Made by a program: the position numbers and the translations under genes | Assembly (NCBI GenBank): GCA_003194425.1 | Contig: PQXB01000001.1 | Coordinates: forward strand, 1-32,000 | DNA from: Candidatus Methanophagaceae archaeon | Lineage (GTDB): Archaea > Halobacteriota > Syntropharchaeia > Alkanophagales > Methanospirareceae | Length of the DNA stretch: 32,000 nucleotides | Reading direction: 5' to 3' | In this document: in pieces, positions 306-31,305 of the stretch | Numbering within the stretch: the first letter of the stretch is position 1 | Layout of the letters: every line of letters starts with the position of its first letter | Notes under the pieces: model-generated | The model's input: only the letters and a program-made list of their open reading frames with translations | Database searches by the model: none | Told to the model about the DNA's origin: nothing

Positions 306-352
306 TCCTCCTTCCCCCGGCACGTTGCCTCCTCCTTCCCCGGCACGTTGCC
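306..352. repeat. Intergenic tandem direct repeat, 24 nt + 23 nt (tcctccttcccc(c)ggcacgttgcc)
   Basis: Copy 1 at 306-329 and copy 2 at 330-352 are identical except for one extra c in the C-run. The repeat is pyrimidine-rich on the + strand. Confidence 0.9.
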
Positions 353-684
353 AAAACTTGCCTACATCGTGCAGAAGAGCTGCAAGTTGGATTATTTTTT
401 TACATTTGACAAGAAAAGGAATTAGCTCAGACGAGCATATAAAGTGTTCTGCTTAACTTGCTTCTAGCAGGCATGAATCGGTTAGAAGATGGAGAATAAA
501 AAGGTCGTATTAAATTTTTATTCTAATACAATATTGTCTCCTCTTGAATATTTTTTTATGTTTTTATAATGTTAATATAATTGAAAGTTTATAAGTAAGG
601 TAACAAGATATTTTTATTATCTTGCCCCACGCGGAGGGGAAAGGTAAAGGGAAAAAGTCAGGGAAATGAAAGCAAAAAGCGTAG

Positions 685-919
685 AAGTGGATCTGGTGCG
701 TAACACCTGCGGCAAACACAACTGCAACACCAACTCCTACATTTAAACCCTCGCCCACACCTCCCACTACCTCCTCCCCTACCTCCTACCTCTGCACCCA
801 CACCCAAACCCACGCCTACACCAAAGTCAGCGTTGCCGGGATTTGAGGCTGGATTCGCTTTCGCCGGAATCTTTGCAGTGGCTTACTTGCTGCTGCTGTT
901 CAGGAAGAAAAGAGGATGA
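685..919 (+). pseudogene. Frameshifted remnant of a surface-anchored protein tail: Thr/Pro-rich linker plus PGF-CTERM sorting signal
   Basis: The frame open over 704-919 ends in PTPKPTPTPKSALPGFEAGFAFAGIFAVAYLLLLFRKKRG*, that is PGF, a hydrophobic helix and a basic tail. The adjacent frame (685-846) reads TPAANTTATPTPTFKPSPTPPTTSSPTS. Neither frame has a start codon or a signal peptide. The stop at 917-919 overlaps the ATG at 916 of the next gene (ATGA). Confidence 0.5.
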
Positions 920-1999
920 GAGGATTAATCACAAAAGTAGTTAGTTACGGCATAATAATTTTCATAATTCTCTCGCTCAACTTCTTTCTGCCACGAATGT
1001 CGCCCGCGGGTCCGCTCTCGCTATCAGGCTCGGGCTTAACGAGTGCGGACCAGCAGGAGCAGGTTTTGGAAGAATACGGGAATTATCTGCGCGGTCTTAC
1101 GCACGGAGACCTGGGCTGGTCAAGTTCTAAAAACGCACCTGTCTCGGAAGTGTTGAAAAGGAGTTTAAAATGGACGCTACTGCTCGTCGGCACTTCAACC
1201 GTAGTTTACATAATTTTAGGAATTCTGACAGGTGCGGTCTCGGCGTGGAAGAAGGGGAAGAAGACGGACGTTGGGCTGCTCGTCTTGCTTGTTTCTCTGG
1301 CTTCGGTCCCGCCGTTCTTTCTTGGAATGCTCTTTATTATTTATTTCGAGTGGAAGTGGGACTTGTTCCCGAGGTTTGGTGCGCAGACGCTGTTTGTGAA
1401 TTATTCAACGCCTTTTGGGGTGGTGTTGGATATTTTGCACCACTTAGCGCTCCCGGCTGCAACGCTCACGCTTACCAGCGTCGGCGTAATTTACCTACTG
1501 ACTTCCGAGGCTTCCGCTGATAATCCTGATCGCTGCGTTCCTGCGTCCAAGCGTCTTGAACCTCGTCTTTGTATTCGCGTTCTTCGAGTGGTCAGTAACC
1601 GCCCGTGTCATTCGGTCAGAGGTTTTAACGCTAAAAACCCGATCGTACGTGGATGCAGCGAGAATGCTCGGCGCGGGCGATTTTCATATCCTCGGGCGGC
1701 ACATTCTGCCAAATGTTGTTCCGTTAGTCGTTGTGCAGTTGGTCTTGGTCTCGAGGTACATAATTCTCGCCGAGTCGGGATTGAGTTTCATTGGGCTCGG
1801 CGACCCGACTGCGAAGAGCTGGGGAATGATGCTGCACGACGCTTTTGAATATCCCACGATTTTCATAACAGACCTGTGGAAGTGGTGGATGCTGCCTGCG
1901 GGGTTGCTTATTGGACTTACGATCCTTTCCCTCAGTTTCATCGGCTACGCACTGGAGGAAGTGGTGAATCCGAGGCTGAAGCGGTCGTTAGTGATATAA
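916..1999 (+). pseudogene. Chimeric, out-of-frame ABC permease: OppB/DppB-like N-terminal half joined to an OppC/DppC-like C-terminal half
   Basis: From 916 to about 1500 the sequence parallels the intact OppB paralog at 2325, up to ...HHLALPAATLTLTSVGVIYLLT. After that this frame becomes Arg/Cys-rich nonsense. A different frame, open from 1502, reads LPLIILIAAFL...FEWSVTARVIRSEVLTLKTRSYVDAARMLGAGDFHILGRHILPNV...NPRLK, which parallels the C-terminal half of the intact OppC at 3256. Confidence 0.6.
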
Positions 2000-2225
2000 A
2001 AACCCCGAGGTAGACCGCTTGATAGAAGAGGGACGAACCACCTTTGACTACGACGACCGATGGGAAATCTACAGGAAAGCACAGGAGCAAATCTTGGAGG
2101 ACTCGCCCGAGATATTCGTTTTCTATCTGAACGAACTTGTCGGCTTGACCAACGAGGTGCAGGGCTACGAAATCTACCCGAACGAGATAACATTCCTTAC
2201 GGGGGAGATATACAACACAGCGTAG
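1995..2225 (+). pseudogene. C-terminal roughly 76-codon fragment of a family-5 (OppA/DppA-type) substrate-binding protein
   Basis: The frame opens right after an in-frame TGA (1992-1994). It reads YKNPEVDRLIEEGRTTFDYDDRWEIYRKAQEQILEDSPEIFVFYLNELVGLTNEVQGYEIYPNEITFLTGEIYNTA*, a typical SBP_bac_5 C-terminus. No N-terminal body is present. The fragment abuts the stop (1997-1999) of the permease remnant. Confidence 0.65.
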
Positions 2226-5850: not shown

Positions 5851-6060
5851 TTACCGTTCAGATTTTTGACAAATCAGAAATTTCTCGAGGTCACCGTATT
5901 CCTCTTGTAACTCAAATTGTTTCGTCTCGTCTAGATCTAATATCCTCACTGTCGTCGGCTCGTGTTTCAAAACTTCTCGCATGATTTCCTGACCTATCGA
6001 GCCAGTGCCACAGGTTATCAAAATATTTTTATCCTTACATATCTTCTACTGATTCTTCAT
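5851..6060 (-). pseudogene. N-terminal remnant of a CapD/PseB-type NAD-dependent polysaccharide dehydratase/epimerase
   Basis: Hand translation gives MKNQ*KICKDKNILITCGTGSIGQEIMREVLKHEPTTVRILDLDETKQFELQEEYGDLEKFLICQKSER*. This is a Rossmann loop of the ILITGGTGSIG type with a Gly-to-Cys change. There is an in-frame TAG at codon 5, and the fragment is truncated at about 65 residues. Confidence 0.5.
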
Positions 6061-6125: not shown

Positions 6126-6171
6126 CATGATCGAAGCATTGAAACAAACATGATCGAAGTATTGAAACAAA
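6126..6171. repeat. Tandem direct repeat 2 x 23 nt (catgatcgaag[c/t]attgaaacaaa)
   Basis: 6126-6148 and 6149-6171 differ at a single position. The repeat lies in an AT-rich region of gene fragments. Confidence 0.9.
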
Positions 6172-6489: not shown

Positions 6490-7917
6490 ATGAGAGGGTT
6501 CAAAGAGAGGTTGGCGAGGGAAGGGGGGTTAGTAGAGATTGAGCGGGCGGTGTCGTCAAAATACGAGGTTGCGTCGGTTTGTGCAGAGTTGGAGCGGAGA
6601 GGGAATAAAAAACCTGTCTTTTTTCACGCGGTTGACGGCAGGCACAAAGTCCTGACGAACGTGCTGGGCGGGAGAGAGAGGCTGGCGGAGCTGCTGGGAC
6701 TTGGCACCGCTGCCTCCGCTGAGGTCGCACCGTTTTTGGCGAAAGTCGCTGAAGGTGGAAGAGGAGGAGGCAGCGAAGGAGAGGAAGAGGGAGCGAGAAA
6801 GGGAGAGGGAGCGGGAGAGAGAGAGGTGAAAATAGTGGAGGACTCGCCGACGAGGGAAGTAGTCAGCAAGGAGCCGGATTTAAGCGAGTTGCCGATTTTA
6901 ACGCATTTTCACGGCGACGGCGGCGCCTACATCACGGCAGGGGTGGTGGTTGCGGAACTGGACGGCGTGAGGAACGCGTCGTTTCACAGAATGATGGTCT
7001 TGGACGCGAAGAGGCTCGCAGTGCGGCTCGTTCCACCCAGACACCTCTACAAAATGCACCGCGAAGCAGTGGAGCGAGGCGAGGAGTTAAAAGTGGGAAT
7101 CGCGATCGGAGTGGAGCCGTTGGTTCTTTTGGCGGCTGCTACAAGAGTTCCGCCGGGCAAGGAGTTCGAGTACGCGGCGGCGTTAAAAACCCTTTCTTTA
7201 GAAAAGAAAGGTTTGCCAAAGAAAAACGAGTCAGTGGAGCTTTTTAGGTTGAGCAACGGCGTTGCAGTTCCGCACGCAGAATTCGCTTTGGAAGGCTTTT
7301 TAGGCGAAGAGAGAGCGAGAGAGGGTCCGTTTCTGGACCTTACCGGGACTTACGACTGCGTGAGGGAAGAGCCGGTTCTCAGGCTTACGAAGATTTACCA
7401 CCGCAAAGACCCGATTTACCACGCCATTCTTCCCGCGGGTGCGGAGCACAAACTCTTGATGGGTGTGCCTTACGAGCCCTTGATTTTCCGGGCGGTAGAG
7501 CGTGTTGCACGAGTGAAGAATGTGTTTCTAACCGACGGCGGGTGCTGTTACTTGCACGCGGTGGTGCAAATAAAAAAGGAGGGGAAAGGTGGCGAAGGGG
7601 AAGGAGAAGGAGTGGCGAAGAATGCGATTATTTCGGCTCTCGCTGCTCACCCCAGCCTCAAACTCGTCGTCGTTGTTGACACTGACATTGACCTGTTCAA
7701 CCCCGCGGAGGTGGAGTACGCGTTGGCGACGCGGGTGCGGTGGAGTGAGGATTTGGTGCTAATTCCTGGTGCGAAGGGCTCGTCGCTTGACCCGTCTTCG
7801 CGAAACGGGCTGACAACAAAAATCGGAATTGACGCCACAAAAGAGACAGGGAGAGGTGAGGAGGCGGGCGGAGGCGAGGAGGCGGCGAAGAAGTACGAGC
7901 GGGTCGTGACTACTTAA
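6490..7917 (+). CDS. UbiD-family (prenyl-FMN dependent) decarboxylase
   Basis: 475 aa. The UbiD-like N-terminus is FKERLAREGGLVEIERAVSSKYEVASVCAE. Core segments include GAYITAGVVVA..NASFHRMMV and DPIYHAILPAG. Three Gly/Glu-rich low-complexity inserts are present. Confidence 0.8.
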   Translation: MRGFKERLAREGGLVEIERAVSSKYEVASVCAELERRGNKKPVFFHAVDGRHKVLTNVLGGRERLAELLGLGTAASAEVAPFLAKVAEGGRGGGSEGEEEGARKGEGAGEREVKIVEDSPTREVVSKEPDLSELPILTHFHGDGGAYITAGVVVAELDGVRNASFHRMMVLDAKRLAVRLVPPRHLYKMHREAVERGEELKVGIAIGVEPLVLLAAATRVPPGKEFEYAAALKTLSLEKKGLPKKNESVELFRLSNGVAVPHAEFALEGFLGEERAREGPFLDLTGTYDCVREEPVLRLTKIYHRKDPIYHAILPAGAEHKLLMGVPYEPLIFRAVERVARVKNVFLTDGGCCYLHAVVQIKKEGKGGEGEGEGVAKNAIISALAAHPSLKLVVVVDTDIDLFNPAEVEYALATRVRWSEDLVLIPGAKGSSLDPSSRNGLTTKIGIDATKETGRGEEAGGGEEAAKKYERVVTT

Positions 7918-8614
7918 TCTTTGTCAATTTCGTTAAGTCTTCTATAAATTTCGGAAATCCTTTCACTTTTTCACTCTCGCTGACTTCTCGGAGAACGTAG
8001 GTCCCGTCTAATTCGTGCTCCACGACAATCCTGTTTCGAGAAGGTTCTCCCGAAAGACCTCTTACAAGGTCGCCATCTTCGTCGGCGGTAACAAAATAAC
8101 CTTTTATGTGCATTGTAAAGGGGTCGCTGGCGAGCTTCAGTTTCCAATAAGCGGTCTGTGCAACTCTTTCACGTAAGGTGATTTTGCAGGAAATTATTCC
8201 GAGAACTTTACGCGTCTCGGGGTCAAAGACCACCAAGTCAGTGTCAGGTAGCAACGCCCACTTTGTGTACCTAACCAAAAGCTGGCGGTAAATTCCGCTA
8301 AGTTCCGCGTCAAGGTTCTTTCTCTCAAGCCGACTTCCCGGAATACAGCGAAGCCCAAGACCTTTTATTTGGTCTTCAATTATGTGCAGAACCAGTCTCT
8401 CAAAATTGTTTCCTTTGAAGGCTTTCCAAGATTGCTCTGCATCTGGCGTTTTGCCGTCTGCGATTTTCTTTAGCGCTTTTGGACTGCTGAGATACTCTCG
8501 TTTGTATTCTTCACGAGCCTCCTCAAAAATCTCTGAAATGTGAAGGTAAGCCCCGTCGCTGCCGTATTCTTTCTTCTTGCTCTCATACCGCTCTTTTAAG
8601 TCGTCAAAGTTCAT
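7910..8614 (-). CDS. Putative type II restriction endonuclease (PD-(D/E)xK-like)
   Basis: 234 aa, lying 3 nt downstream of the methyltransferase gene on the same strand. Candidate catalytic segment is LLPDTDLVVFD...GIISCKITLRERVAQ. The SxK..R-E-R arrangement is reminiscent of the Cfr10I/NgoMIV-type CCGG-family enzymes, but that comparison is from memory only. Confidence 0.5.
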   Translation of the reverse strand: MNFDDLKERYESKKKEYGSDGAYLHISEIFEEAREEYKREYLSSPKALKKIADGKTPDAEQSWKAFKGNNFERLVLHIIEDQIKGLGLRCIPGSRLERKNLDAELSGIYRQLLVRYTKWALLPDTDLVVFDPETRKVLGIISCKITLRERVAQTAYWKLKLASDPFTMHIKGYFVTADEDGDLVRGLSGEPSRNRIVVEHELDGTYVLREVSESEKVKGFPKFIEDLTKLTKIK

Positions 8615-8617
8615 AAT

Positions 8618-9439
8618 TTACTTCCCTCCTCCTCTTTCATAATGTGCCCATTTAACTTCTCTACGCCCGCCTTTTTTTGGTTTTGCGTCAGGCTTTCGCA
8701 TAATAAACAAATATTTGAAACCTCGTAGAAAAAAGTTGAATTTCCTCGCTCTGTAGTACCAGACCGCGGTGTTCGACGCTTGACCTCTGCGGACCACGCA
8801 AATAATATCCACAGTCTCAAAATATTTGCACAACCGCTCGTAAACCAAGAAGCCGACAGGAGTGAATTTCTTTTTTACCCACTGGTCGCCAATCAGCCAG
8901 CCAAGCACTTTGCCAGGCTTCAAAATCCTGCAGCATTCGCCCATCGCCTTCTCCAACTCGTCAAAGAACCGCTCCTCTTCGCACGAAATCTTGCCTATGC
9001 AGGCGGGATGATCGTTGTATTTTAGGTTGTCTGAATACGGCGAATCCACGAAGACCAAGTCAGCGGTTTCCTCTTCCAACGGTATTTCTCTTGCGTCGTT
9101 CTGAATAATATCGGAGCGAGCAGGAGCAATGTCAAAACAGACAGCCTTGCGTCCCTCTTCTTCGCAGACATCAATCGTCGTCCCGCTTCCACACATTGGG
9201 TCAACGACCAAGTCGCCAGGTTTTGTGTACCTTTGAACCAGATTGTAAATAATAAAGGCAGGAGTGACGCCGGGATATTTGTTATTTCCTTTTGGTCTTT
9301 TGCCGTAACTCTGCGTTGGGTAGTCCCACAGCGTTGTAGCCTCCACAAGCGGTTTCTTTTCTCCTTCTTTTTCTTCCGCTTCTGCTGCCTCAACCTCTTC
9401 TTCAAAGAGTGGTAACTGCTTGTTTCCTTTCCTATTCAT
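8618..9439 (-). CDS. DNA methyltransferase, amino (N6-adenine or N4-cytosine) type
   Basis: 273 aa. The AdoMet motif I (YPGVTPAFIIYNLVQRYTKPGDLVVDPMCGSGTT) precedes catalytic motif IV (ADLVFVDSPYSDN). This is permuted relative to the beta class, where DPPY comes first. The N-terminus is acidic and low-complexity. Confidence 0.8.
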   Translation of the reverse strand: MNRKGNKQLPLFEEEVEAAEAEEKEGEKKPLVEATTLWDYPTQSYGKRPKGNNKYPGVTPAFIIYNLVQRYTKPGDLVVDPMCGSGTTIDVCEEEGRKAVCFDIAPARSDIIQNDAREIPLEEETADLVFVDSPYSDNLKYNDHPACIGKISCEEERFFDELEKAMGECCRILKPGKVLGWLIGDQWVKKKFTPVGFLVYERLCKYFETVDIICVVRRGQASNTAVWYYRARKFNFFLRGFKYLFIMRKPDAKPKKGGRREVKWAHYERGGGK

Positions 9440-11720: not shown

Positions 11721-12163
11721 TTTCTTCGTTGCGAAAGGTTCAGTATTCGCACTGCGAGCAGAGCCGCGTTCGCACCGCTGTCAATTCCCACCACCGCCAC
11801 CGGAACGCCCGAAGGCATCTGCACCATCGAGAGCAGCGCGTCCAGCCCACCCAGCGACTTACCGCTCACCGGAACGCCGACGACTGGCTTCTCGGTCTTT
11901 GACGCCACTACGCCAGGCAGAGCCGCCGAGAGCCCTGCAATCGTGATAAACACCGCCACCGAACCGTCCTCCTCCTTCTCCTCCTCCTTCTCCTCTAAAT
12001 ATTTGTCCAGCGCCTTGGGGTTCCGGTGTGCAGAAATCACCCGCACCTCGTAAGCGACTTTCCGCTCCTCCAAGACCTTCACCGCCTTTTCCGCCACTGC
12101 TCTGTCGCTCTCTGAGCCCAAAATTATCGCTACTTTTTGCACTTCCTTCTGCTCCTTTTTCAC
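11717..12163 (-). CDS. purE: PurE, N5-carboxyaminoimidazole ribonucleotide mutase / AIR carboxylase catalytic subunit
   Basis: 148 aa. [18 protein letters not shown] (SAHR, class I-like) and [28 protein letters not shown] are present. There is an acidic insert, [11 protein letters not shown]. Confidence 0.9.
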
Positions 12164-15734: not shown

Positions 15735-15770
15735 TTTTTCCTCCTTCTCCTATTTAACCCCCTCCACTTC

Positions 15771-19343: not shown

Positions 19344-19384
19344 GTGAAAAGGTAAAAGAGAGTGAAAAGGTAAAAGAGCGAAAA

Positions 19385-19873
19385 TTGAGAGCTTTTAGGA
19401 TTAGAACGACGAAGGGGCTCGCGATAAAAATACGGAATTTCGGAGTGCCGGACATCAGGAGAGTTGTAGAAATAGAGGAGAACTCGTCGTTGGACGGGGA
19501 CGCGGGGTTGTATTTGGAGGTGTACGAAGAATGGCAGGAGGGATTCTTGGTTGCTGAGAGGGAGAAGGAGGGGAAAGAAAAAGAAGAGGTGATTGGATTT
19601 ATAGTTTTGGTGCTAACGCCAGAGGGGGAGGGTCGAGTCTTTGCGATCGCGGTTGATTCGAGGTACCGCGGGAAGGGTGTGGGCAGGGCGTTGTTGAAAG
19701 CGGGTTTTAGCGTGCTGCGGAAACGGAAGATTGGGTTCGTTGAGTTGGAGGTGCGTGTGAGCAATGTCGTGGCACAGCGGTTGTACAGCAGTCTGGGGTT
19801 TCTAGAGGTCGGGTTCGTCCCACTCTACTACAAAGACGGAGAGAGTGCGATTTTTATGAGGAAGGTTTTATGA
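19385..19873 (+). CDS. GNAT N-acetyltransferase (RimI-like)
   Basis: 162 aa. The acetyl-CoA motif is VFAIAVDSRYRGKGVGRALL, and VELEVRVSNVVAQRLYSSLGF is present. The TTG start is uncertain. Confidence 0.7.
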   Translation: MRAFRIRTTKGLAIKIRNFGVPDIRRVVEIEENSSLDGDAGLYLEVYEEWQEGFLVAEREKEGKEKEEVIGFIVLVLTPEGEGRVFAIAVDSRYRGKGVGRALLKAGFSVLRKRKIGFVELEVRVSNVVAQRLYSSLGFLEVGFVPLYYKDGESAIFMRKVL

Positions 19874-19913
19874 GTGGCGGAACGGCTGCAGCAAAACAAA
19901 AATTCCGACAGTC

Positions 19914-19945
19914 TCCGCTCTGACTTTTCTAAAGAGCGGATTTTT
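19914..19945 (+). terminator. 8-bp hairpin followed by T5
   Basis: tccgctct (19914-19921) pairs with agagcgga (19933-19940) across an 11-nt loop, followed by ttttt (19941-19945). It lies 41 nt after the GNAT stop. Confidence 0.35.
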
Positions 19946-19979
19946 GGCACCTCCTTCTCCTTTTCGATCAAATCACTTC

Positions 19980-20219
19980 TCATTCTATAAAACCCCCTTC
20001 TCCCTCCTTACCCTCTTTTTCTGTCCAGTACGAAACCGCCCCTTCCCGCATTTTCAAGTCAAGAAAATCCTTCCGCAGCAATTTCGCTACCAACCCGTAA
20101 ACCGTGAAGACCGTGTAAAACATAAGACCAAGCAGCAATTTGGTGTTGTAGTATCCAATAATTTTGCCCACCCGCAGCCATTTCTGCCAGACCCTTTTGA
20201 AGAACGATTTTAGATCCAT
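19980..20219 (-). CDS. Small membrane protein, SxtJ-like (tentative)
   Basis: 79 aa. WQKWLRVGKIIGYYNTKLLLGLMFYTVFTVYGLVAKLLRKDFLDLK....SYW resembles, from memory, the C-terminal half of the SxtJ family. It has one clear hydrophobic helix. It is divergent from carB. Confidence 0.45.
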   Translation of the reverse strand: MDLKSFFKRVWQKWLRVGKIIGYYNTKLLLGLMFYTVFTVYGLVAKLLRKDFLDLKMREGAVSYWTEKEGKEGEGGFIE

Positions 20220-20267
20220 TGTTTATAACACTACATTTTACATCTATATAAATATTTAAGTGCTAAA

Positions 20268-23200
20268 ATGCCAAGAGCAGAAGATGTCAAGAAGGTGCTG
20301 GTAGTCGGGTCGGGTCCGATTCAAATAGGGCAGGCGGCGGAGTTCGACTTCTCGGGCTCGCAGGCGTGCCGTGCGTTGCGGGAAGAGGGAGTGGAGGTGG
20401 TGCTCGTGAATTCCAACCCTGCGACGATAATGACCGATTTTGAGATGGCGGATGTGATTTACATCGAGCCGCTGGTTGCGGATGTGTTGGCGAAGATCGT
20501 GGAGAAGGAGCGACCAGAGGGTATTTTGGCGGGCTTGGGCGGGCAGACGGCACTGAACCTGACCGCGGAGCTGGCAGAGCGGGGCGTGTTGTCAGGCTGT
20601 GGCGTAAAAGTTCTCGGTACGCCTTTAGAAGCCATTTACGACGCCGAAGACCGCGAGCGGTTCAAACAGACGATGAAAAGGATAAACGAGCCGATTCCGC
20701 GGGGCGTTACTGTCAATTCGGTAGCAGAGGCGGAGGTGGCTGCGGCGGAACTGGGACTGCCACTCGTCGTCCGACCTTCTTACACGCTGGGCGGCACGGG
20801 AGGGGGAATTGCGCGGACGCTGGAGGAGTTGCGTGAGACGGTGGCTTACGGGCTGCAAATGTCACGGATTCATCAGGTCTTGGTCGAGGAGAGCGTGCTC
20901 GGGTGGAAGGAAATTGAGTACGAGGTGATGCGGGACGCGAACGACACCTGCATCACGATTTGCAATATGGAGAACCTCGACCCAATGGGAATTCACACTG
21001 GCGAGTCCGTCGTGGTCACGCCGTCGCAGACATTGACCGACGAGGAGCACCAAATGCTGCGGTCCGCGGCGATAAAAATAATTCGTGCGCTGAAGGTTGA
21101 GGGCGGCTGTAATGTTCAGTTCGCACTGCGGAACGGGGAGTACAGAGTAATTGAAGTGAACCCGCGTGTCTCGAGGTCGTCGGCGCTCGCGTCGAAGGCG
21201 ACGGGCTACCCGATTGCGCGGGTCGCGGCGAAGATCGCGATTGGGCTGCATTTGGACGAGATCCAGAACAATGTGACTGCGGAGACGCCTGCGTCTTTTG
21301 AGCCTGCGATTGATTATGTTGTGGTAAAGATTCCGCGGTGGCCGTTTGACAAGTTCCCGAGCGCGGACAGGACGCTGACGACCGCGATGAAGAGCACGGG
21401 CGAGGTGATGGCGATCGGGCGGAGTTTTGAGGAAGCGCTGCAGAAGGCTCTTCGCTCTCTTGACCTTGACGCAGACAAGGGATTTGGTGCGGGGTGGGGG
21501 AGTGAAAGTGAGCCGGGGTGTGGCAGTGAGCCGGGGTGTGGCAGTGAGCCGGGGTGTGGCAGTGAGCCGGGGTGTGGCAGTGAGCCGGGGTGTGGCAGTG
21601 AACGAGAGAAAAGGTCGGAAGCGGAGTTGAGGTGGCTTTTAGAAACGCCGACCGACGAGCGGATTTTTGCGATTTACGAGGCTTTGAAACGGAAACAAGA
21701 ACAGGAACAAGGACAGGGGTTTAGCGTTGAGGAGGTTGCGGAGCTGAGTGGCATCGACAAGTTTTTCATAAAGAAAATTGCGAAGATTGTGGAGTTGGAG
21801 GGGAAGTTAAAAGAGAAAGGGAGAGAGAGAGAAAAAGAGAGAGAGAACAGGGATCTGGAGGGGAATTTGAGGGAGGCGAAGCGGTTGGGGTTCAGCGACG
21901 AGCGAATTGGTGCGCTGACTGGGCGAAGCCGAGAGGAGGTGAGCGACATAAGAAGGAGAGCGGGCGTTCTTCCGACTTACAAAATGGTCGACACCTGCGC
22001 GGCGGAGTTCGAGGCGAAGACGCCCTACTTCTACTCCTGCTACGAGACGGAGTGCGAACTGAAGCCGTCGCAGTCGAGACGGAAAAAGATCCTGATCGTC
22101 GGTGCGGGTCCGATTCGGATTGGGCAGGGAATCGAGTTCGACTACTGCACCGTGCACGCGGTCAAGGCGCTAAAGGAGGAGGGAATCGAGGCACACATCA
22201 TAAACAACAACCCCGAGACCGTTTCCACAGACTACGACACCTCGGACAAGCTCTTCTTTGAGCCGCTGACGCTTGAGGATGTAGTGAATGTGGTGGAGAA
22301 AGAGGGCTACGACGGCGTGATGCTGCAGTTCGGCGGTCAGACCTCTGTGAATTTGGCGGTACCGCTGAAGCGCGAACTTGAGCGGCTGGGGTTGGGGAGG
22401 GGGGAGGCGAAGATGAAAACGAAGACCGTGATTCTGGGGACAGACCCCGAGAAAATAGATGTCGCAGAGGACAGGGAGCGGTTCAGCAAGTTCCTCCGCC
22501 GTCTCGGAATTCCGCAGGCTGACAGCGGCTACGCAACTTCGGCAGCGGAAGCGAGGGAAGTAGCCGAGCGGATTGGGTTTCCTGTGCTTGTCCGCCCTTC
22601 TTACGTGCTGGGCGGGCGGGCGATGGAAATCGTGCACGACGAGGACGAACTGGCGAGGTACATTCGAGAGGCGGTGCGGGTCTCGAAGGAGAAGCCGGTG
22701 CTGATTGACAGGTTCTTGGAGAAAGCGACTGAAATCGATGTGGACGCAGTCTGCGACGGCGAGGAGGTTCTAATCGGCGCGGTGATGGAGCATATTGAGG
22801 AGGCGGGCGTTCATTCCGGCGACTCTGCCTGCGTTATTCCACCACAGTCGTTGTCCGCGGAGGTCTTGGCGACGGTGCGGGACTACGTGCGGCGAATCGC
22901 AGTAGGGTTGGAGATAAAAGGGCTGCTCAACATTCAAATGGCTGCCAAAGACGGCGTGGTCTTCGTGCTTGAGGTGAACCCGCGGTCGAGCAGGACAATT
23001 CCGTTCGTTGCGAAAGCGACAGGAATTCCGCTTGCGAAGCTCGCGGCGAAAGTGATGCTCGGGCACAAACTGCAGGAGTTGGGTTCGGCAGTGCAGGAGT
23101 TGGGTTCGGCAGTGCAGGAGTTGGGTTCGGCAGTGCAGGAGTTGGGTTCGGCAGGCGCGAGCGTCGGCGTTAAGGGCAAAGAACGCGAGCCGGGGCAAGG

Positions 23201-24167: not shown

Positions 24168-27100
24168 ATGAGTGCTATGCCAGAGAAGACGAGAATGATG
24201 CAGCAGTACTACGAGGTAAAAAAGAAGCACCGCGACTGCATCGTGCTGTTTCGTGTCGGTGATTTTTACGAGACCTTTGGCGAGGACGCGAAGGTGGCGT
24301 CGAAGGTGCTGAACATTACTTTAACCGCAACTGGGCGGGGTAAAGGAGCAGCGAGGAGAATTCCAATGGCTGGCGTCCCTTTCCACGCCGTAACACCTTA
24401 CATCAAGCAACTCGTGAAGAAGGGCTACAAAGTCGCAATCTGCGAGCAAGTAGAGGGTAAGAAGAACGACAAAAAAGGGAAGAAGGTTGTGCAGCGGGAG
24501 GTCGTGCGTCTGATTACGCCGGGCACGGTGATCGAAGATTCTTTCCTGGAAGAACGGCTCAGCAACTACCTGATGTGCGTGAACATAATGGGTGAGAGAG
24601 AACCCAGGGTCGGAGTTGCGGTCGCTGACGTCTCGACAGGCGAGTTCTTGCTGACCGAGTTGGAAGACGACGCCTCCCACTCGTCGCTGCTAAACGAGGT
24701 GGAGCGGGTGAAGCCTGCGGAGATAATTCTGCCCGAGTCGCTTGAACTCGAACTTGGGCTGGACAGTAGCCAGTCTAGCTTGAAGAGGCAGGAGGGGTGC
24801 ACGGTCTCCCGCTACGACGACTACTACTTCGACTACAAGAACGCCTACACGACGCTGCTAAACCATTTTGGAGTAATTTCGTTGGACGGCTTCGGGTGCG
24901 GTGGCGGTGGCAGAGGCAGGGAGTTCAGAGCAGGAGTAACAGCCGCGGGTGCCGTGATTTCTTACCTACGCGAGACGCAGAAGAAGGTGCTCTCGCACAT
25001 TAAACCGCCCAAGACATTCTGGGTCTCGGATTTTATGATTTTAGACAGCGTTACTGTTCGCAACCTCGAAATCTTTAACAACATTCGCGACGGGACGCAA
25101 CGAGGGACGCTCGTTAGCGTGCTTGACAAGACGCTGACTGGAATGGGCTCACGGCGGTTGCGGAAGGCTCTGCAGTTCCCCCTGCTCGACACCCGCGAGA
25201 TAAAACGCAGGCAGGAGGTGGTGGGCGAGTTTTTTGCGGACATTCTGCTGCGGGAATCGTTAAAGGAGGTTCTCAAGGAGATTTACGACCTCGAGCGAAT
25301 TGTTAGCCGTGTCTCGTACGGAAATGCGAACGCACGGGACTTGGTCTCGCTGAAGCGGAGTTTAGAGCAGTTCTCGACGCTGCGGGAGGTCTTGAAGGGC
25401 TGCCGCTCGGAGAAGATAAAAGAGGGGTTGCGGACTTCTTTGAGGTCTTCTTCAAGCGACCTCGGCTTCGGTGAAATTGTGGATTTGGTGGAGCGGAGCA
25501 TCGTGGAGGAGCCGCCGGCGACGGTGAAGGAGGGAGGGTTGGTGAAGGCTGGGTTCAACGCCGAGTTGGACGAGTTGAGGAAAATAAAGAGCGAGGGGCG
25601 GAGGTGGTTGGCGGAGTTTGAGGGTCGCGAAAAGGCACGAACAGGAATAAAATCGCTTAAGGTCGGCTACAACAAGGTCTTTGGCTACTACCTCGAAGTG
25701 CGGAGGGCGTGGCTCGGGAAAAGGAAAGTGCCTGCCTCTTACACCAGGAAGCAGACGCTCACAGAGGCGGAGCGGTTCGTTACCGAGGAGTTGAAGAACT
25801 ACGAGGCGAAGGCGTTGAGCGCGGAGGAGCGGATAAAAGAGTTGGAGTACGAATTGTTCGAGCAGGTTAGGAAGGCGGTTGCGAAGCGGGCGAAGGAGAT
25901 TCAGGAGGCTGCGGATTTCATCGCCGAGTTGGACACGCTTCTGGCTTTTGCCGAGGTCGCTGCCGAGAACGGGTACTGCTGCCCTGAAGTGAGCGGTGAG
26001 GGAGGTGAAATCGTAGTGAAAGAGGGGAGGCACCCGGTAGTGGAGCGGGAGGTGAAGGAGGGCTTCGTGCCGAACGACGCTCGGCTCGACGAAAACAATC
26101 GGCTGATGATTCTCACGGGTCCAAATATGAGCGGGAAATGTATTGGTCCAGAAACACTGATTTTTACCGAGTGTGGTCTTCTGCCACTTTTGAAATTCAA
26201 ACCTGCGGGAATAAAGAAGGGAGAGTTCAAAGACCTCGAGGTGTGTCTGTGCGGAGAAGACGGAATTGAGCGAACCTCAAAATTTTACTACGACGGCAGG
26301 AGAAAGACCGTGAAAATAACGACACGGCTCGGATACACAATCGAAGGAACAGAGGAGCACAGAATTTTGGTGAGGGAAAAGGAGGAAAAAGGAAATCACT
26401 GGAAGCGACTGGGCGATTTGAAAACAGGCGAATACGCAGTTATAAATCGTGGGATGGATTTTTGGGGAACCGAGACCAAAATAGAGGCGAAGAGAATAAA
26501 AAGGCACTACCACTTTAATACGAAAAAATACAGAGTGCCGAGTGAGTTGGACGAGGACTTGGCTTACTTGCTCGGTCTGCTGATTGGCGACGGCACGCTG
26601 ACTTATAAAAATAGTTTTTCGTTGAGCACTGGAGACGAGTTCGTGGCACGAGAGTTCAGGCAGATAAACAAGAGGCTCTTCGGGAAGGAGGTAGGGCGTA
26701 AAAAGAACGGCAAGGACTACTTCGTCTCAAGCCTATTTTTGCGGGACTTTTTCTTTGACCTGGGCGTCGGCTACCAGGACGCGTGCCACAAGGAAGTTCC
26801 AGAGTGCATTCTCGCAGCACCAAAAGAGATTGTAAGGGCGTTCTTGCAGGGGCTCTTCGACACCGACGGCTACGCGGACGCGAAATACGGGAACGTGAGC
26901 GTCTCCAGTTCCTCAAAGAAGATCGCAGAGCAGTTGCACGTGCTGCTGCTGAATTTCGGGATAATTTCAAGCCTGCGGCGGAAGGAGACGAAGAGGAACG
27001 ATTCTTACACAGTTAGCATTTACGGCGAGAACAGTCTGCGGTTCTACGCCGCGGTAGGGTTCAGGTTGAGGCGGAAAGGGGACAGGGCGTTGTTGGGGAC

Positions 27101-28325
27101 CGATTTGAGAATGCCGAACGTTGATGTTGTTCCTCAAATTGAAGGGAGGTTGAAAAAAATAGAGAAGGAAATAGTGGCGAGGGGAAAGCAGGGTTTGGAG
27201 AGCAGATTGAGGTTAAAGCACAACAAAAGCAGGAGCGGGATATTTTATTCATATTTGAGGCAGGGCAGAAATTTGTCTTACTTCAAACTCAAGCAACTCC
27301 TCGACTACTGCGAGCGGTTAGGGGTTGAGTGCGGGGAATTGGAGGAGTTGAAGGGGCTGTTTCAGAGGAACTACTTTTACGACCGGGTGAAGAAAATAGA
27401 GGCGTCAGAATCGGATGTTTACGATTTCACAGTCCCCAAATCGCATTCTTTCGTTGGAAACGGGTTCTTGAACCACAATTCTACTTTTATGCGGCAGACC
27501 GCGTTGGTCGTGCTACTGGCACAGCTCGGCTCGTTCGTGCCTGCGAAGGAAGCGAGGGTGGGGGTGGTGGACAGGATTTTCACGCGGGTCGGGGCTTACG
27601 ACGACCTCTCGATGGGGCAGAGTTCGTTTATGGTCGAGATGAGCGAGACTGCGAATATTCTGAACAACGCGACCGAGCGGAGCCTGATAATTCTCGACGA
27701 AATCGGGCGCGGCACGAGCACACTCGACGGCGTCAGCATCGCGTGGGCGGTTGCAGAGTACGTTCACACCAGGCTGCGGGCGAAGACGATGTTTGCGACG
27801 CACTTCTACGAACTGACCGAGCTCGCTGACTCTGACAGACTTGTGGGGACGAAATGCTACAACGTCTCGATAAAAGAGGTCGGCGACGAGATATTTTTCG
27901 TCAGGAAAGTCGTGCAGGGCAGGGGCTCAAAGAGCTACGGGATTCAGGTCGCGAAGTTGGCGGGGCTGCCCGCGGAGGTGGTGGAGAATGCGAAAGGTAT
28001 TTTGAAGAGGTTGGAGAGTGGGGCAGGGAAGGGAGGACGGAAAAAGGAAGGAGCGGTGGTGGAGGGAGAAAAGGAGGAGGAAGAAAAGGAGGAGGAAGAA
28101 AAGGAGGAGGAAGAAGAGGAAGAGGGAGAAGAGGAAGAGGGAGAAGAGGAAGAGGAGGGGGGAGAAGAGGAGGAGGGAGAAGAGGAAGAGGAGGCGAAGG
28201 CGACGAAGGAACGCGTTGTGCAGGAGCACCCTGTGGTTGCAGAGTTGAAGTCGTTAAATTTGGAGAGGGTTTCGCCGATCGAGGCGTTGAACAAGTTGTA
28301 CGAGATGAAGAGGAGGTTGCGTTGA
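24168..28325 (+). CDS. mutS: DNA mismatch repair protein MutS (bacterial MutS1 type), intein-containing precursor
   Basis: 1385 aa. The N-terminal mismatch-binding domain has MMQQYYEVKKKH...GDFYETFGEDA. The Walker A motif is GPNMSGK / STFMRQ, interrupted by the intein. SSFMVEMSETANIL, LIILDEIGRGTSTLDG, ATHFYELT and SYGIQVAKLAGLP are present. The C-terminal helix is SPIEALNKLYEMK. Confidence 0.9.
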   Translation: MSAMPEKTRMMQQYYEVKKKHRDCIVLFRVGDFYETFGEDAKVASKVLNITLTATGRGKGAARRIPMAGVPFHAVTPYIKQLVKKGYKVAICEQVEGKKNDKKGKKVVQREVVRLITPGTVIEDSFLEERLSNYLMCVNIMGEREPRVGVAVADVSTGEFLLTELEDDASHSSLLNEVERVKPAEIILPESLELELGLDSSQSSLKRQEGCTVSRYDDYYFDYKNAYTTLLNHFGVISLDGFGCGGGGRGREFRAGVTAAGAVISYLRETQKKVLSHIKPPKTFWVSDFMILDSVTVRNLEIFNNIRDGTQRGTLVSVLDKTLTGMGSRRLRKALQFPLLDTREIKRRQEVVGEFFADILLRESLKEVLKEIYDLERIVSRVSYGNANARDLVSLKRSLEQFSTLREVLKGCRSEKIKEGLRTSLRSSSSDLGFGEIVDLVERSIVEEPPATVKEGGLVKAGFNAELDELRKIKSEGRRWLAEFEGREKARTGIKSLKVGYNKVFGYYLEVRRAWLGKRKVPASYTRKQTLTEAERFVTEELKNYEAKALSAEERIKELEYELFEQVRKAVAKRAKEIQEAADFIAELDTLLAFAEVAAENGYCCPEVSGEGGEIVVKEGRHPVVEREVKEGFVPNDARLDENNRLMILTGPNMSGKCIGPETLIFTECGLLPLLKFKPAGIKKGEFKDLEVCLCGEDGIERTSKFYYDGRRKTVKITTRLGYTIEGTEEHRILVREKEEKGNHWKRLGDLKTGEYAVINRGMDFWGTETKIEAKRIKRHYHFNTKKYRVPSELDEDLAYLLGLLIGDGTLTYKNSFSLSTGDEFVAREFRQINKRLFGKEVGRKKNGKDYFVSSLFLRDFFFDLGVGYQDACHKEVPECILAAPKEIVRAFLQGLFDTDGYADAKYGNVSVSSSSKKIAEQLHVLLLNFGIISSLRRKETKRNDSYTVSIYGENSLRFYAAVGFRLRRKGDRALLGTDLRMPNVDVVPQIEGRLKKIEKEIVARGKQGLESRLRLKHNKSRSGIFYSYLRQGRNLSYFKLKQLLDYCERLGVECGELEELKGLFQRNYFYDRVKKIEASESDVYDFTVPKSHSFVGNGFLNHNSTFMRQTALVVLLAQLGSFVPAKEARVGVVDRIFTRVGAYDDLSMGQSSFMVEMSETANILNNATERSLIILDEIGRGTSTLDGVSIAWAVAEYVHTRLRAKTMFATHFYELTELADSDRLVGTKCYNVSIKEVGDEIFFVRKVVQGRGSKSYGIQVAKLAGLPAEVVENAKGILKRLESGAGKGGRKKEGAVVEGEKEEEEKEEEEKEEEEEEEGEEEEGEEEEEGGEEEEGEEEEEAKATKERVVQEHPVVAELKSLNLERVSPIEALNKLYEMKRRLR
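26139..27479 (+). mobile_element. Class 1 intein with LAGLIDADG homing endonuclease domain (447 codons) in the MutS P-loop
   Basis: It starts at Cys (tgt, 26139) right after GPNMSGK and ends ...FVGNGFLNHN (aat, 27477-27479), followed by Ser+1 (STFMRQ). Block B is GYTIEGTEEHRILV. The LAGLIDADG motifs are LAYLLGLLIGDGTL and FLQGLFDTDGYAD. Sampled intein lines have 24-28 G+C per 60 nt against 39-40 in flanking mutS lines. Confidence 0.9.
28061..28194. repeat. 134-nt uninterrupted homopurine tract near the mutS 3' end encoding a poly-Glu/Lys/Gly linker
   Basis: There is no c or t from 28061 to 28194. It encodes EKEEEEKEEEEKEEEEEEEGEEEEGEEEEEGGEEEEGEEEEE. Internal 15-nt (aaggaggaggaagaa) and 18-nt periodicities are visible. 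Confidence 0.9.
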
Positions 28326-29570: not shown

Positions 29571-29844
29571 AGAAAGCTCTAACCCTTCTTTCCCTCAATT
29601 TATTATCTGGCAGAGAATCAGGTCGTCAGGTCGTCCCCTTCTAATTCGGCAACAACCAGAGCAGGGCACAGAGCAGGACGCCTCTTGGCACGGGTTAAAT
29701 CCGAAAATGAAACAAACTGTATAAAATCCAGAAACTCCGCGAGATATTGTTCAGAAATCCTCTCGGTGTCTTTGTGTCGGTTTTAAATTCTGCAACGCAA
29801 CTACGAAAAAACCGAAAAGCATTTTAGGAAGGATGTAGGATATT

Positions 29845-29854
29845 CTTTTAAAGA
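29845..29854 (+). promoter_or_regulatory. TATA-like box upstream of the Nox/CoADR gene
   Basis: cttttaaaga is centred about 25 nt upstream of the ATG at 29875. Confidence 0.3.
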
Positions 29855-29874
29855 TTTCGAGAGGGGGAAAAGAG

Positions 29875-31305
29875 ATGGCGAAAAAAGTTGTAATAGTTGG
29901 AGGAGGCATTGCGGGGATTTATGTGCTGAGGAACTTGCTTGCGAGGAAGGGCGATCTCGGAGCAGGAGAGGAGTTGGAGTTCACGGTCTTGAAGCGAGAG
30001 AAGAGCGGTTGGGTCTCAGTTTGCGGGCTGCCGTTTGCTTTGCGCGGGTGGTACGAGATTGGGCGGACGGAAATAAACAAGCCTGAGTTCTTCCGCGAGC
30101 AGGGCGTTGATTTCAGGACAGAGACAGAAGTGACAAAGCTGAATTTGGAGGAAGGAGAGGGCAGCGTGACACTCAACACTGGCGAAGAGATAAAATATGA
30201 TTTCCTCGTGCTGGCGACGGGGCGAAAGCAGTCCGTGAAAGAGACGGAACTCGACGGTGTTTTCACTTTTAACAACGAGGAGGACGCGGAAAAGATAGAA
30301 GCGGCACTGAACGAGGAGGGAGTGAAAAGCGCTTACATTCGCGGTCGTGGTATTTTGGGACTGCAAGCGGCAGCCGCTTTCGCAACGCGGGGGTTGAAGA
30401 CAACACTTCACGGCGGCGCTCCTTCGTTGCTGCCTTCCAACTTAGACCCCGAAATGGGCGACTTGGTAAAAGAGCGGTTGGAGAAGGAGGGGATAAGATT
30501 TATTCTCGACGCACGAGAAATTACAGCGATAAAAAGTGAAGGGCGAGAGGGCAGAGTGAAGACGGTCGTGATCGGGGAAAAGAAAAATGGAAAGGAGAAG
30601 GGGAGAGAGGAGATTCCTGCGGATATTGTTATAATCGGGAAATGGATGCTTCCTGAGGTAGACCTCGCAAAAGCAGCGGGAGTGGAGATTGGAGAAAGCG
30701 GCGGAATTGTTACGGACAGGGGAATGCACATTAAAAAAGGGCGAGGGCATCTAACCAATGTCTACGCAGTCGGCGACTGCACGGAAGTCGTAGACGCCGT
30801 CACGCACCGACCGCGACTGAACCAACTCGCTTCTACCGCGGTCACTCAAGCCACGGTCATTTCTGACAACATTCTGAGCGAGATTAGCGGGCTGCCAAGC
30901 CTCTACTCGCCTTGCGAGTACTGTTTCGGTCCGACAGTAGCGGATGTCGGAGGCGTCTTGATCGGCTCGGTCGGCGTTACAACCGAAGCAGCGGCACGGG
31001 CAGGCATAAAAACAATTAGCGGGAAGGCGACGAAACTCACGAAGGCACGCTACTTCCCCGGGGCGACTCCACTCACCCTGAAATTGATTTTTGAGGCGTA
31101 CACCAAGAAATTAATCGGGGCGCAAATGGTCGGCGAAGCCACTGTCGCGGAGCGTGTAAACGAGTTAGGACTCGCTGTTCGTGCAGGAGTTACCGCAGAG
31201 GAGATGAGAAGTATGGAGCGGTGCTACGACCCTTCGCAGGCGCTGTTGGTTGATGTGACGGTAGACGCTGCGACCGCGGCTTTGGGAATTACGCCAGTGT
31301 ACTAA
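29875..31305 (+). CDS. FAD-dependent pyridine nucleotide-disulfide oxidoreductase, NADH oxidase / CoA-disulfide reductase family
   Basis: 476 aa. The FAD motif is KVVIVGGGIAGI and the single redox cysteine is in WVSVCGLPF. A second dinucleotide fold (IRGRGILGLQAA), YAVGDC and a C-terminal dimerisation domain are present. Confidence 0.8.
   Translation: MAKKVVIVGGGIAGIYVLRNLLARKGDLGAGEELEFTVLKREKSGWVSVCGLPFALRGWYEIGRTEINKPEFFREQGVDFRTETEVTKLNLEEGEGSVTLNTGEEIKYDFLVLATGRKQSVKETELDGVFTFNNEEDAEKIEAALNEEGVKSAYIRGRGILGLQAAAAFATRGLKTTLHGGAPSLLPSNLDPEMGDLVKERLEKEGIRFILDAREITAIKSEGREGRVKTVVIGEKKNGKEKGREEIPADIVIIGKWMLPEVDLAKAAGVEIGESGGIVTDRGMHIKKGRGHLTNVYAVGDCTEVVDAVTHRPRLNQLASTAVTQATVISDNILSEISGLPSLYSPCEYCFGPTVADVGGVLIGSVGVTTEAAARAGIKTISGKATKLTKARYFPGATPLTLKLIFEAYTKKLIGAQMVGEATVAERVNELGLAVRAGVTAEEMRSMERCYDPSQALLVDVTVDAATAALGITPVY

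Follow-up and report, generated by a model that had tools for sequence, protein, structure and literature searches.

The first 32,000 nucleotides of contig PQXB01000001.1 (GenBank assembly GCA_003194425.1), from a Candidatus Methanophagaceae archaeon and hereafter called the window, carry a window-wide pattern of short tandem arrays, which lie in conserved housekeeping genes as well as between genes and differ in copy number among near-identical strains. We consider it likely that the arrays reflect lineage-specific slippage or tandem duplication of purine-rich seed sequences, filtered in genes for in-frame insertions that encode hydrophilic loops. The original prediction, made from the letters of the window, had proposed that DNA-level slippage or duplication is frequent and that, in genes, only the in-frame products survive, and this core proposal is supported by array density, by lineage specificity and by the copy-number data from strains. 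The arrays have independent origins and perfect or near-perfect units, they change by whole units in both directions, and they behave in the same way in coding and non-coding DNA.

The closest named relatives of the window CarB and UbiD proteins are from Methanophagales/ANME-1 (anaerobic methanotrophic archaea, group 1). The window UbiD is identical to PXF50872.1, encoded on a contig of 1,187,124 bp, and is 99% identical to OYT65383.1 of "ANME-1 cluster archaeon ex4572_4"; assembly GCA_026133975.1 belongs to the same lineage. The window is chromosomal DNA of a Guaymas-type ANME-1 (Methanophagales) lineage, an environmental origin suggested solely by the names that identical or nearly identical proteins carry. 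It is not a Borg element, because it encodes ribosomal proteins L5 and S4e, IlvC, CarB, ProC and PurE and because its closest relatives are metagenome-assembled genomes (MAGs) of Methanophagales.

Array density and chance controls

Arrays were called with Tandem Repeats Finder (TRF), which recovered every tandem array listed in the original prediction at the place assigned to it. For density, overlapping rows were merged and arrays with a score of at least 50 and a period of at least 6 were counted, giving 15 arrays in the 32-kb window (4.7 per 10 kb, 2.9% of bases). Their periods of 12 to 36 nt, with 2 to 9 copies and 84 to 100% matches in head-to-tail direct repeats, are those of minisatellites, and seven arrays contain perfect blocks of at least 30 nt. 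The membrane proteins of the window (the Opp permeases and the MgtE coding sequence) carry no arrays.

The sequence examined for the lineage comprises the window and about 90 kb of strain loci, and in these TRF density ranges from 3.7 to 5.6 arrays per 10 kb. Three loci of other ANME-1 (L087-L089) have 0 to 1.0 per 10 kb, 279 kb of ANME-1 outgroup loci have 0.22, and 1.44 Mb of unrelated prokaryotic loci (80 distant CarB loci, with no ANME-1 genome among them) have 0.59, the highest single locus reaching 2.6. The excess is about 20-fold over other ANME-1 loci and about 8-fold over the unrelated loci; at the scale of the window, the excess over related archaea on which the original prediction had made itself depend is present. 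Codon shuffling within each coding sequence left 4.2 +/- 0.5 arrays against the 15 observed, the remainder being essentially the unshuffled intergenic arrays, and because shuffling removes every coding array, chance and codon usage alone are excluded as their source. When only perfect repeats of at least 50 nt and at least three units are counted, the criteria applied to Borg elements, repeats cover 0.56% of window bases, 0.015% of the 1.44-Mb background and 0% of L087-L089, an excess of about 37-fold, with only two arrays in 32 kb passing. Microsatellites with units of 1 to 5 nt are not enriched in the window over background frequency.

The TRF consensus unit differs at each array locus, and because each array has its own unit sequence the arrays arose independently. 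Derivation from one dispersed element was considered and ruled out: the 12-mer of the RadB array has a single counterpart outside that array, a near-copy in the gene for an NADH-oxidase-like flavoprotein (Nox). Rfam and tRNA scans of the window gave no match, so the intergenic arrays are not known RNAs.

Copy-number variation among strains

Strain assemblies were retrieved by exact-protein look-ups, through cluster members of near-identical proteins and by one metagenome scan. Exact look-ups of the window CarB and IlvC gave no match, whereas L5 and the clusters around near-identical CarB and UbiD yielded strain contigs. The strain loci come from NCBI MAGs (L084, L171), ENA (L083, L085, L086, L170), JGI metagenomes (L090-L092, L133, L172) and Logan (L081, L082); apart from the Logan contigs, they are 98.9 to 99.4% identical to the window in aligned bases, with a single-nucleotide polymorphism distance of 0.6 to 1.0% (mean 0.7%). 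Across these four sources, arrays occupy the same sites in about a dozen independent assemblies, and 35 of 60 array-by-strain comparisons differ in length, with up to four alleles per array. Length changes in both directions, for example ProC +42, the helix-turn-helix (HTH) regulator +36 and -6, PurE +9 and RadB -60 nt. The RadB array has alleles of -12, -36 and -60 nt over five strains, the purine-rich tract upstream of MgtE is shortened (-12, -24 and -36 nt) in L084, L090 and L133, and the array in the spacer between the S4e and L5 genes is present in one copy (-21 nt) in L090, L091 and L092 and in two copies in L084 and L085.

Eight aligned strain comparisons contain 47 indels (recurrent events counted repeatedly), and all but nine of these lie in or beside arrays. 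In the eight alignments, indels of at least 6 nt all have lengths divisible by 3, and the few 1-bp indels between strains are intergenic. One length change seen outside those alignments is not divisible by 3, namely the 23-nt copy change of the intergenic array at 6126: the unit is single in L172 and doubled in the window and L171, and in L170 a 111-bp deletion spans the site. Because this array varies in copy number, length polymorphism extends, where there is no reading frame to keep, to a unit that is not a multiple of 3. By a crude estimate that ignores selection and shared ancestry, each array changes length at about 100 times the rate of substitution per site.

Short-read assemblies and scaffolds are interrupted at arrays. 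The Logan contigs L081 and L082, which are 100% identical to the window, end inside the ProC and RadB arrays (window positions 13770, 17157 and 17233), and L171 has five 100-N gaps (4206, 5983, 8575, 10721 and 14354), two of them at the ProC and RadB arrays; the L171 ProC and RadB gene calls are truncated in consequence. Public protein sets for this lineage will hold fragmented array-bearing genes. Several alleles recur in independent assemblies, including RadB -36 (L084, L090), RadB -60 (L085, L091) and CarB -42 (four loci), and because identical alleles recur in unrelated assemblies, assembler noise is an unlikely source of the variation.

Restriction to one ANME-1 lineage

CarB has 1173 residues in the window and 1137 to 1143 in strain variants, and about 1065 to 1099 in other ANME-1. 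An alignment shows that other ANME-1 CarB proteins (73 to 85% identity) are without all four CarB tracts; similarly, in alignments, 13 ANME-1 RadB orthologues encoded beside MgtE have no (GREE)n array and nine ANME-1 UbiD orthologues have none of the three UbiD insertions. Overall, the array-free orthologues of CarB, RadB and UbiD are 63 to 85% identical to the window proteins. ANME-1-THS has no arrays in CarB or UbiD, and Alkanophagales has none in CarB (P0081, P0098, P0193). The GC content of the window lineage is 0.53, versus 0.43 to 0.46 in other ANME-1, and this higher value and the names of its relatives suggest that the lineage may be thermophilic. Locus L108 (JGI Ga0209614_1000230) has a GC content of 0.53 and 65% MgtE identity, and contains one array in 21 kb. 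Since L108, ANME-1-THS and Alkanophagales are array-poor, neither high GC content nor thermophily alone predicts the repeat-rich state.

It could be argued that the arrays arose as artefacts of assembly, or that they are ancient linkers of low complexity produced by thermophile-style purine loading, given that short-read contigs break at them and that sense-strand purine loading is general in ANME-1. We give this next to no probability. The sites are identical in the independent assemblies, the perfect arrays of 84 to 95 nt are shorter than a typical read, orthologues are array-free, and relatives that are equally purine-loaded have 0.22 arrays per 10 kb against 3.7 to 5.6 in the lineage. The original prediction had named artefact, and repeats that are ancient and diverged in relatives, as findings that would undo it; recurring alleles at shared sites answer the first, and array-free orthologues together with copy number that differs among strains about 99% identical answer the second.

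Reading frame and position in conserved proteins

In 12 of the 13 coding arrays that reach a TRF score of 40, the period is divisible by 3. The one that departs from the rule is the imperfect AG-rich tract of CarB at 21812-21846 (TRF period 16/2), which acts among strains as a 30-nt indel (relative to L084, L085, L086 and L133), and it is for this tract that the claim of the original prediction, that every array unit in a coding sequence is divisible by 3, does not hold. Its companion claim, that intergenic arrays are free of this constraint, fits three of the six intergenic arrays (23, 23 and 22 nt), but the other three (12, 18 and 21 nt) have periods divisible by 3. The contrast between coding and intergenic arrays is real, but the cases are few. 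The frame rule is what survivorship in intact genes demands, and all coding length changes between strains preserve the reading frame. With coding changes in frame and the genes being housekeeping genes, the arrays are not contingency (phase-variation) loci. The arrays upstream of MgtE and in gene spacers could affect expression.

In the encoded proteins, arrays occupy the gaps between Pfam domain matches or lie at their edges. The UbiD array lies between the UbiD_N and UbiD domains, the ProC array between the NADP-binding and dimerisation domain matches, and the S4e array at the C-terminus; the RadB array splits the Rad51/RecA domain match. Two breaks in the alignment of the window CarB with E. 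coli CarB (1bxr_A), at query residues 405-483 and 940-978, coincide with array sites, and the site of the 18-nt CarB array is the junction matching E. coli CarB residues ~408-445. At the site of the 21-nt CarB array and in UbiD, other ANME-1 carry unrelated insertions or vary in length, and because unrelated sequence is inserted there, these CarB and UbiD loops tolerate length change. The arrays add about 100 residues to CarB, about 50 to UbiD and about 40 to RadB; these conserved cytoplasmic enzymes carry variable acidic loops that are probably disordered. An AlphaFold2 model of CarB, built from a 13-sequence alignment, was poor (mean predicted local distance difference test score of 47.6) and was not used. 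The UbiD array holds two or three of the 3 to 6 strain substitutions found in 475 residues, positions 99 and 104 accounting for two, which suggests that substitution is elevated inside the repeat.

MutS and its intein

The mutS gene (24168-28325, + strand) contains a 447-residue LAGLIDADG intein at 26139-27479, in the Walker A motif, and the same intein-family matches are found in MutS of strain loci L084-L086. The intein junctions are canonical (Cys1, His-Asn and Ser+1; GPNMSGK/C...HN/STFMRQ, with slashes at the junctions), and splicing would restore the Walker A sequence GPNMSGKST. All five MutS domains are present with strong Pfam scores, and the E-rich array follows domain V, whose end is at residue 1283, and precedes a short C-terminal segment.

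The original prediction had linked this intein- and tract-bearing mutS to weak suppression of slippage. Such an explanation, weak mismatch repair, would draw on an intein that interrupts Walker A and a 134-nt E-rich array in the same gene, but we judge it highly improbable. Domains I-V are intact, the splice junctions are canonical and the tract lies beyond domain V; microsatellites of 1 to 5 nt are at background frequency, and the 1-bp indels between strains are few and intergenic. Moreover, MutS proteins of the bacterial type handle loops of only a few nucleotides, and loops of 12 to 24 nt are beyond their range. The proposed link to mutS is therefore unsupported, and the window does not show a mismatch-repair-deficient mutator state; mutL lies outside the window.

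Purine bias and encoded composition

Throughout the window, GC skew and AT skew change sign with the direction of the genes. With arrays removed, the sense strands of all genes are 57% purine (58 to 64% for soluble proteins, 44 to 52% for membrane proteins), and third codon positions in the genes for soluble proteins are about 60% purine. The coding strand is thus purine-loaded with synonymous sites included, and the same is true of other ANME-1: array-free relatives have a purine fraction (R) of 0.575 to 0.588, and 0.58 to 0.60 in CarB, compared with the lower 0.52 to 0.56 in CarB of Methanoperedens and Methanospirillum. Purine loading alone was rejected as a cause of the arrays, since equally loaded relatives are without them.

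The 12 coding arrays go well beyond this background, with a mean sense-strand purine fraction of 0.83 versus 0.573 +/- 0.03 in length-matched windows drawn at random from coding sequence; 0.83 was not reached by any of 10,000 such sets, and the arrays stand about 8 standard deviations above background. Eleven of the 12 exceed the background, the remaining one being the aldehyde:ferredoxin oxidoreductase (AOR) array (0.44), and the two perfect CarB arrays are modestly enriched (0.62 and 0.67). Array base composition is 51% G and 34% A, and four non-coding arrays are purine-rich on the strand of adjacent or co-directional genes. The sense-strand bias that the original prediction had read from the low-complexity tracts is accordingly strong in the arrays, but it is in part a general ANME-1 property that extends to array-free relatives and to third codon positions.

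Codon choice locates this bias more closely. Purine-ending codons make up 0.80 of Gly codons in arrays versus 0.51 elsewhere in the gene set, and 1.00 versus 0.53 of Val codons, and AGR codons make up 100% of Arg codons in arrays versus 44% elsewhere, a comparison in which the copies within one array are not independent. Because synonymous sites in arrays are more purine-biased than those for the same amino acids elsewhere, the bias points to an effect at the DNA or RNA level and not solely to amino acid selection.

Of the residues that the arrays encode, 36% are Glu, 19% Gly and 10% Ala; His, Ile, Met, Trp and Tyr do not occur. Strong convergence of independent arrays on Glu, Gly and Ala could mean that the repeats are kept as useful acidic, disordered Glu/Gly-rich loops that serve solubility, thermal or ionic adaptation, interaction surfaces or condensates. 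The retention of arrays at the same sites in all strains sampled would agree with such a role, heat adaptation is conceivable given a GC content above that of other ANME-1 and the Guaymas-type names, and function was argued from similar evidence for Borg elements (PMC9879509). We nonetheless think this explanation unlikely. Copy number drifts both ways among near-identical strains with no preferred length, non-coding arrays behave alike, and the purine bias extends to synonymous sites; in addition, the thermophile-named ANME-1-THS (CarB, UbiD) and Alkanophagales (CarB) lack arrays, and a permissive filter acting on purine-rich DNA would give the same composition, since GAR, GGR, AGR and AAR encode Glu, Gly, Arg and Lys.

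Proposed mechanism

In the reading that we prefer, slippage or duplication of purine-rich seeds, segments of 12 to 24 nt would have been duplicated in tandem repeatedly in the window lineage and not in other ANME-1, and the resulting arrays would continue to gain and lose units. Slipped-strand mispairing or microhomology-mediated tandem duplication may be responsible, during replication or Okazaki-fragment processing. The process would prefer the purine-rich stretches of a sense strand that is already purine-loaded. Homopurine tracts allow pairing in many registers and may adopt non-B DNA structures. Within genes, a selective filter would then pass units divisible by 3 that encode hydrophilic residues at insertion-tolerant sites, such as interdomain junctions, variable loops and termini; outside genes, units of 22 to 23 nt would persist as well. 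Archaeal PolB and PolD are described as slipping in vitro (PMC4134008), and a recent preprint presents microhomology-mediated tandem duplication as the main route to tandem repeats and ties it to Okazaki-fragment maturation (bioRxiv 10.64898/2026.02.28.708716).

Several observations weigh against this reading. The microhomology arms of several perfect arrays are short or absent (0, 0, 2, 2, 4 and 5 nt), and because the arms measure only 0 to 5 nt, a microhomology-mediated origin is no more than putative. The argument for slippage proceeds from its apparent outcome, unit-multiple indels confined to arrays. Purine richness is not required, as is seen from the AOR array and the two perfect arrays of CarB, none of which is homopurine. 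Equally purine-loaded ANME-1 relatives are array-poor, and nothing in the window explains the difference between lineages. The first 6 kb of the window, with the opp genes and their membrane proteins, is nearly array-free, and the sequence covered is limited to the 32 kb of the window and some 90 kb from strain loci. Finally, short-read contigs could carry assembly errors in the copy number of the longest arrays, those of RadB (111 nt) and MutS (134 nt).

As to why this lineage is affected, candidate causes are altered flap processing or an altered replisome, or relaxed selection. A lineage-specific change in replication or repair, amounting to a "minisatellite mutator" state, would refine the slippage-duplication reading and does not exclude it; flap processing (Fen1/Dna2), PolD/PolB, PCNA, helicases or a dedicated repeat-adding activity would be candidates. 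Yeast rad27/FEN1 mutants show the same kind of duplication and minisatellite instability. In the lineage, density is 20 to 40 times that of other ANME-1 despite equal sense-strand purine loading, coding and non-coding arrays behave alike, the excess is confined to the minisatellite scale with 1-5 nt repeats unaffected, and the link to Okazaki-fragment maturation drawn in the preprint fits as well. On the other side, mutS and radB, the replication and repair genes of the lineage that were examined, look intact apart from loop insertions, and the same excess could arise with an unchanged mutation rate if selection were relaxed or the effective population size were small. We regard a mutator state as possible, with considerable doubt.

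Relation to known repeat systems

The nearest known parallel is with the giant extrachromosomal Borg elements of Methanoperedens. In these, tandem repeats average 0.62% of bases, versus at most 0.01% in Methanoperedens genomes, and fast in-frame repeats that make new disordered segments were highlighted as a Borg hallmark virtually absent from host genomes (Schoelmerich et al. 2023, PMC9879509). The window resembles Borgs in its proportion of perfect repeats (0.56% of bases by the Borg criteria, against the Borg average of 0.62%), in unit sequences that are unique to a locus and absent from homologues elsewhere, in genic units divisible by 3 (here 12/13) alongside intergenic units that mostly are not (here 3/6, both on small numbers), in copy number that differs between close relatives, in a coding-strand composition skew and in repeats rich in disorder-promoting residues. 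Borgs are A-rich, with CCA (Pro) and ACA (Thr) as the commonest codons (PMC9879509), whereas the window arrays have a G+A bias and encode Glu, Gly and Ala. Borg repeats occur in extracellular or membrane proteins, whereas the window arrays occur in conserved cytoplasmic enzymes, on a cellular chromosome beside ribosomal protein genes, carB and ilvC, in another order (Methanophagales), and many of them are imperfect. The window arrays are not carried on a Borg and are not members of the Borg family, but they appear to work like them.

We suggest, though only tentatively, that the lineage has an active, heritable tendency to create and expand minisatellites chromosome-wide, a cellular counterpart of the Borg process, and that the acidic loops may have been co-opted. 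If so, repeat formation can stem from the replication and repair machinery of an archaeal host and not from Borg-specific functions, and functional co-option of the acidic disordered loops of CarB, RadB, MutS, ProC and UbiD would be conceivable. The main value of the window lies in this chromosomal, housekeeping-gene counterpart to Borg repeats: a cellular chromosome with Borg-like density in conserved enzymes is a natural comparison set, and comparison of array-rich with array-poor ANME-1 of equal purine loading could reveal a replication or repair cause of minisatellite birth. The arrays could also be used as strain markers for uncultured methane oxidisers. We found no description of arrays of this kind in ANME-1 in the literature searched, the coverage of which was incomplete, so that this is only suggestive.

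Plasmodium falciparum has Asn/Lys-rich low-complexity inserts in conserved proteins. As in the window, its housekeeping enzymes bear lineage-specific, fast-evolving loop inserts that mirror nucleotide bias; the Plasmodium case is eukaryotic, AT-driven and Asn/Lys-rich, whereas that of the window is archaeal, purine-loaded and Glu/Gly-rich. The copy number of bacterial variable-number tandem repeats (VNTRs) varies through slippage or recombination, and bacterial VNTRs and minisatellites share with the window arrays their head-to-tail repeats, strain-variable copy number and in-frame units in genes. The classical bacterial cases are found mainly in surface, virulence or intergenic loci and serve to type strains, unlike the arrays described here, which are dense in core metabolic, ribosomal and DNA-repair genes of an uncultured archaeon. 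Burkholderia pseudomallei is cited as having the most highly variable tandem-duplication loci (bioRxiv 10.64898/2026.02.28.708716). Purine loading of coding strands is a known trend (Zeldovich et al. 2007, PMC1769408), and the window conforms to Szybalski's transcription-direction rule as treated by Forsdyke and co-workers, the sense strand being purine-rich in either orientation (R ~0.57-0.60); purine loading is, however, a trend in base composition that makes no tandem arrays by itself.

Features of individual arrays

Positions and strain alleles of the arrays and related tracts are given in Table 1. The repeat unit of the RadB array is (GGGAGAGARGAA)n. The tract upstream of MgtE adjoins the start codon of that gene and lies between it and the divergently oriented chorismate mutase gene.

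Table 1. Tandem arrays and low-complexity tracts of the window, with TRF evidence and length differences in strain loci relative to the window.
Feature	Position	Strand	Evidence and remarks
Intergenic duplication, 24/23-nt unit x2, C/T-rich on + strand	306-352		TRF score 87; unit not divisible by 3
C-rich Thr/Pro-coding tract, sense strand of frameshifted PGF-CTERM remnant	754-822	+	Counter-example to purine bias
Intergenic 23-nt x2, between OppF and UbiD	6126-6171		TRF score 85; strain-variable copy number
UbiD imperfect GA-rich array, 24/18/6 nt, encodes GEEEGARKGEGAGERE (aa 97-113)	6778-6826	+	TRF, Pfam
UbiD second insertion, GKGGEGE(GEG), GAAGGA hexanucleotides	7582-7612	+	TRF 7594-7612, period 6; 7-residue insertion vs outgroups
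UbiD C-terminal GA-rich insertion, RGEEAGGGEEAA	7853-7884	+	Weak TRF row; 10-residue insertion vs outgroups
DNA methyltransferase N-terminal E-rich low-complexity tract, purine 0.78	9350-9409	-	Not a TRF array
AOR 15-nt x2.3, FDLTQFDLTQF	10467-10500	-	TRF; sole coding array not purine-rich; equal length in L085
PurE 12-nt x2.4, sense-strand homopurine	11967-11995	-	TRF; +9 nt in L085
HTH regulator 12-nt x3.6, EARA repeats	12540-12582	-	TRF; +36 nt in L085, -6 nt in L091
ProC 24/18-nt array, AEAGVGEGVEAEAGVGVEAEAGVEAGVE	13698-13777	-	TRF; +42 nt in L091 and L092
21-nt x2.1 duplication over S4e stop codon and S4e-L5 spacer	15740-15783	-	TRF; protein unchanged
S4e C-terminal 15-nt x2.1, VEVAAVEVAAG	15791-15821	-	TRF; no strain length variation seen
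RadB 12-nt x9.2 (or 24-nt x4.6, higher-order), sense-strand homopurine, (GREE)n	17160-17270	-	TRF
MgtE-upstream repeat tract, purine-rich on - strand	18852-18930	-	TRF 18852-18910, periods 22/12
Chorismate mutase-RimI spacer, perfect 18-nt x2	19343-19378	+	TRF; single copy in L085 and L091
CarB perfect 18-nt x5.3, GSEPGC x5	21507-21601	+	TRF; alleles -18, -54, -60 nt
CarB 12-nt x2 tract, KQEQEQGQG	21694-21717	+	Insertion vs outgroups; strain length constant
CarB homopurine AG-rich tract, KEKGREREKEREN, within oligomerisation domain	21812-21846	+	TRF period 16/2, imperfect
CarB perfect 21-nt x4, QELGSAV x4	23071-23154	+	TRF; alleles -21, -42 nt
MutS fully homopurine E-rich array, periods 15/21/30/36	28061-28194	+	TRF; alleles -21, -36, -96 nt
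Nox purine-rich (0.88) low-complexity tract, EKKNGKEKGREE	30565-30612	+	Not a TRF array; Nox 476 aa in all strains

Within the Nox tract, positions 30601-30612 (+ strand) hold a single, unexpanded near-copy of the RadB unit, GGGAGAGAGGAG, which has one mismatch and encodes GREE. It is a possible unexpanded seed.

Gene content and strain-variable regions

Pfam scans of the window proteins confirmed the gene identities assumed in the original prediction. On the + strand the window encodes an Opp-type ABC transporter, UbiD, IlvC, chorismate mutase, a GNAT acetyltransferase (RimI), CarB, the intein-containing MutS, an aminotransferase and Nox. The - strand encodes a BsaWI-like restriction enzyme, a DNA methyltransferase, AOR, DUF498, PurE, the HTH regulator, ProC, ribosomal proteins L5 and S4e, RadB, an MgtE-like transporter and a PIN protein. 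By eye, the gene start that crosses the left edge of the window (1-117, - strand) resembles quinolinate synthase, and a short open reading frame (ORF) at 5851-6021 (- strand), with a GxGxxG nucleotide-binding motif, resembles an N-terminal fragment of an epimerase/dehydratase-type gene.

Two degraded genes (660-917 and 916-1999, + strand) lie 5' of the intact opp operon. The first is frameshifted and has a PGF-CTERM-like tail (PGFEAGFAFAGIFAVAYLLLLFRKKRG) after a Thr/Pro-rich, C-rich linker; the second is an ABC permease broken over two reading frames.

Between UbiD and AOR, the region 7910-9439 (- strand) encodes the BsaWI-like restriction endonuclease and an N4/N6 DNA methyltransferase. It is absent or truncated in strain loci L170 and L172, and in L171 it falls in a scaffold gap, the UbiD-AOR distance in the scaffold being about 440 bp. 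The region looks like a strain-variable restriction-modification insertion. Between the acetyltransferase gene and carB (19873-20268 in the window), L084 (6359-9952) and L083 (1-662) carry extra genes that the window lacks, about 3.7 kb in L084, which encode N- and C-terminal parts of a carbamoyltransferase, a GDSL-like protein and small ORFs.

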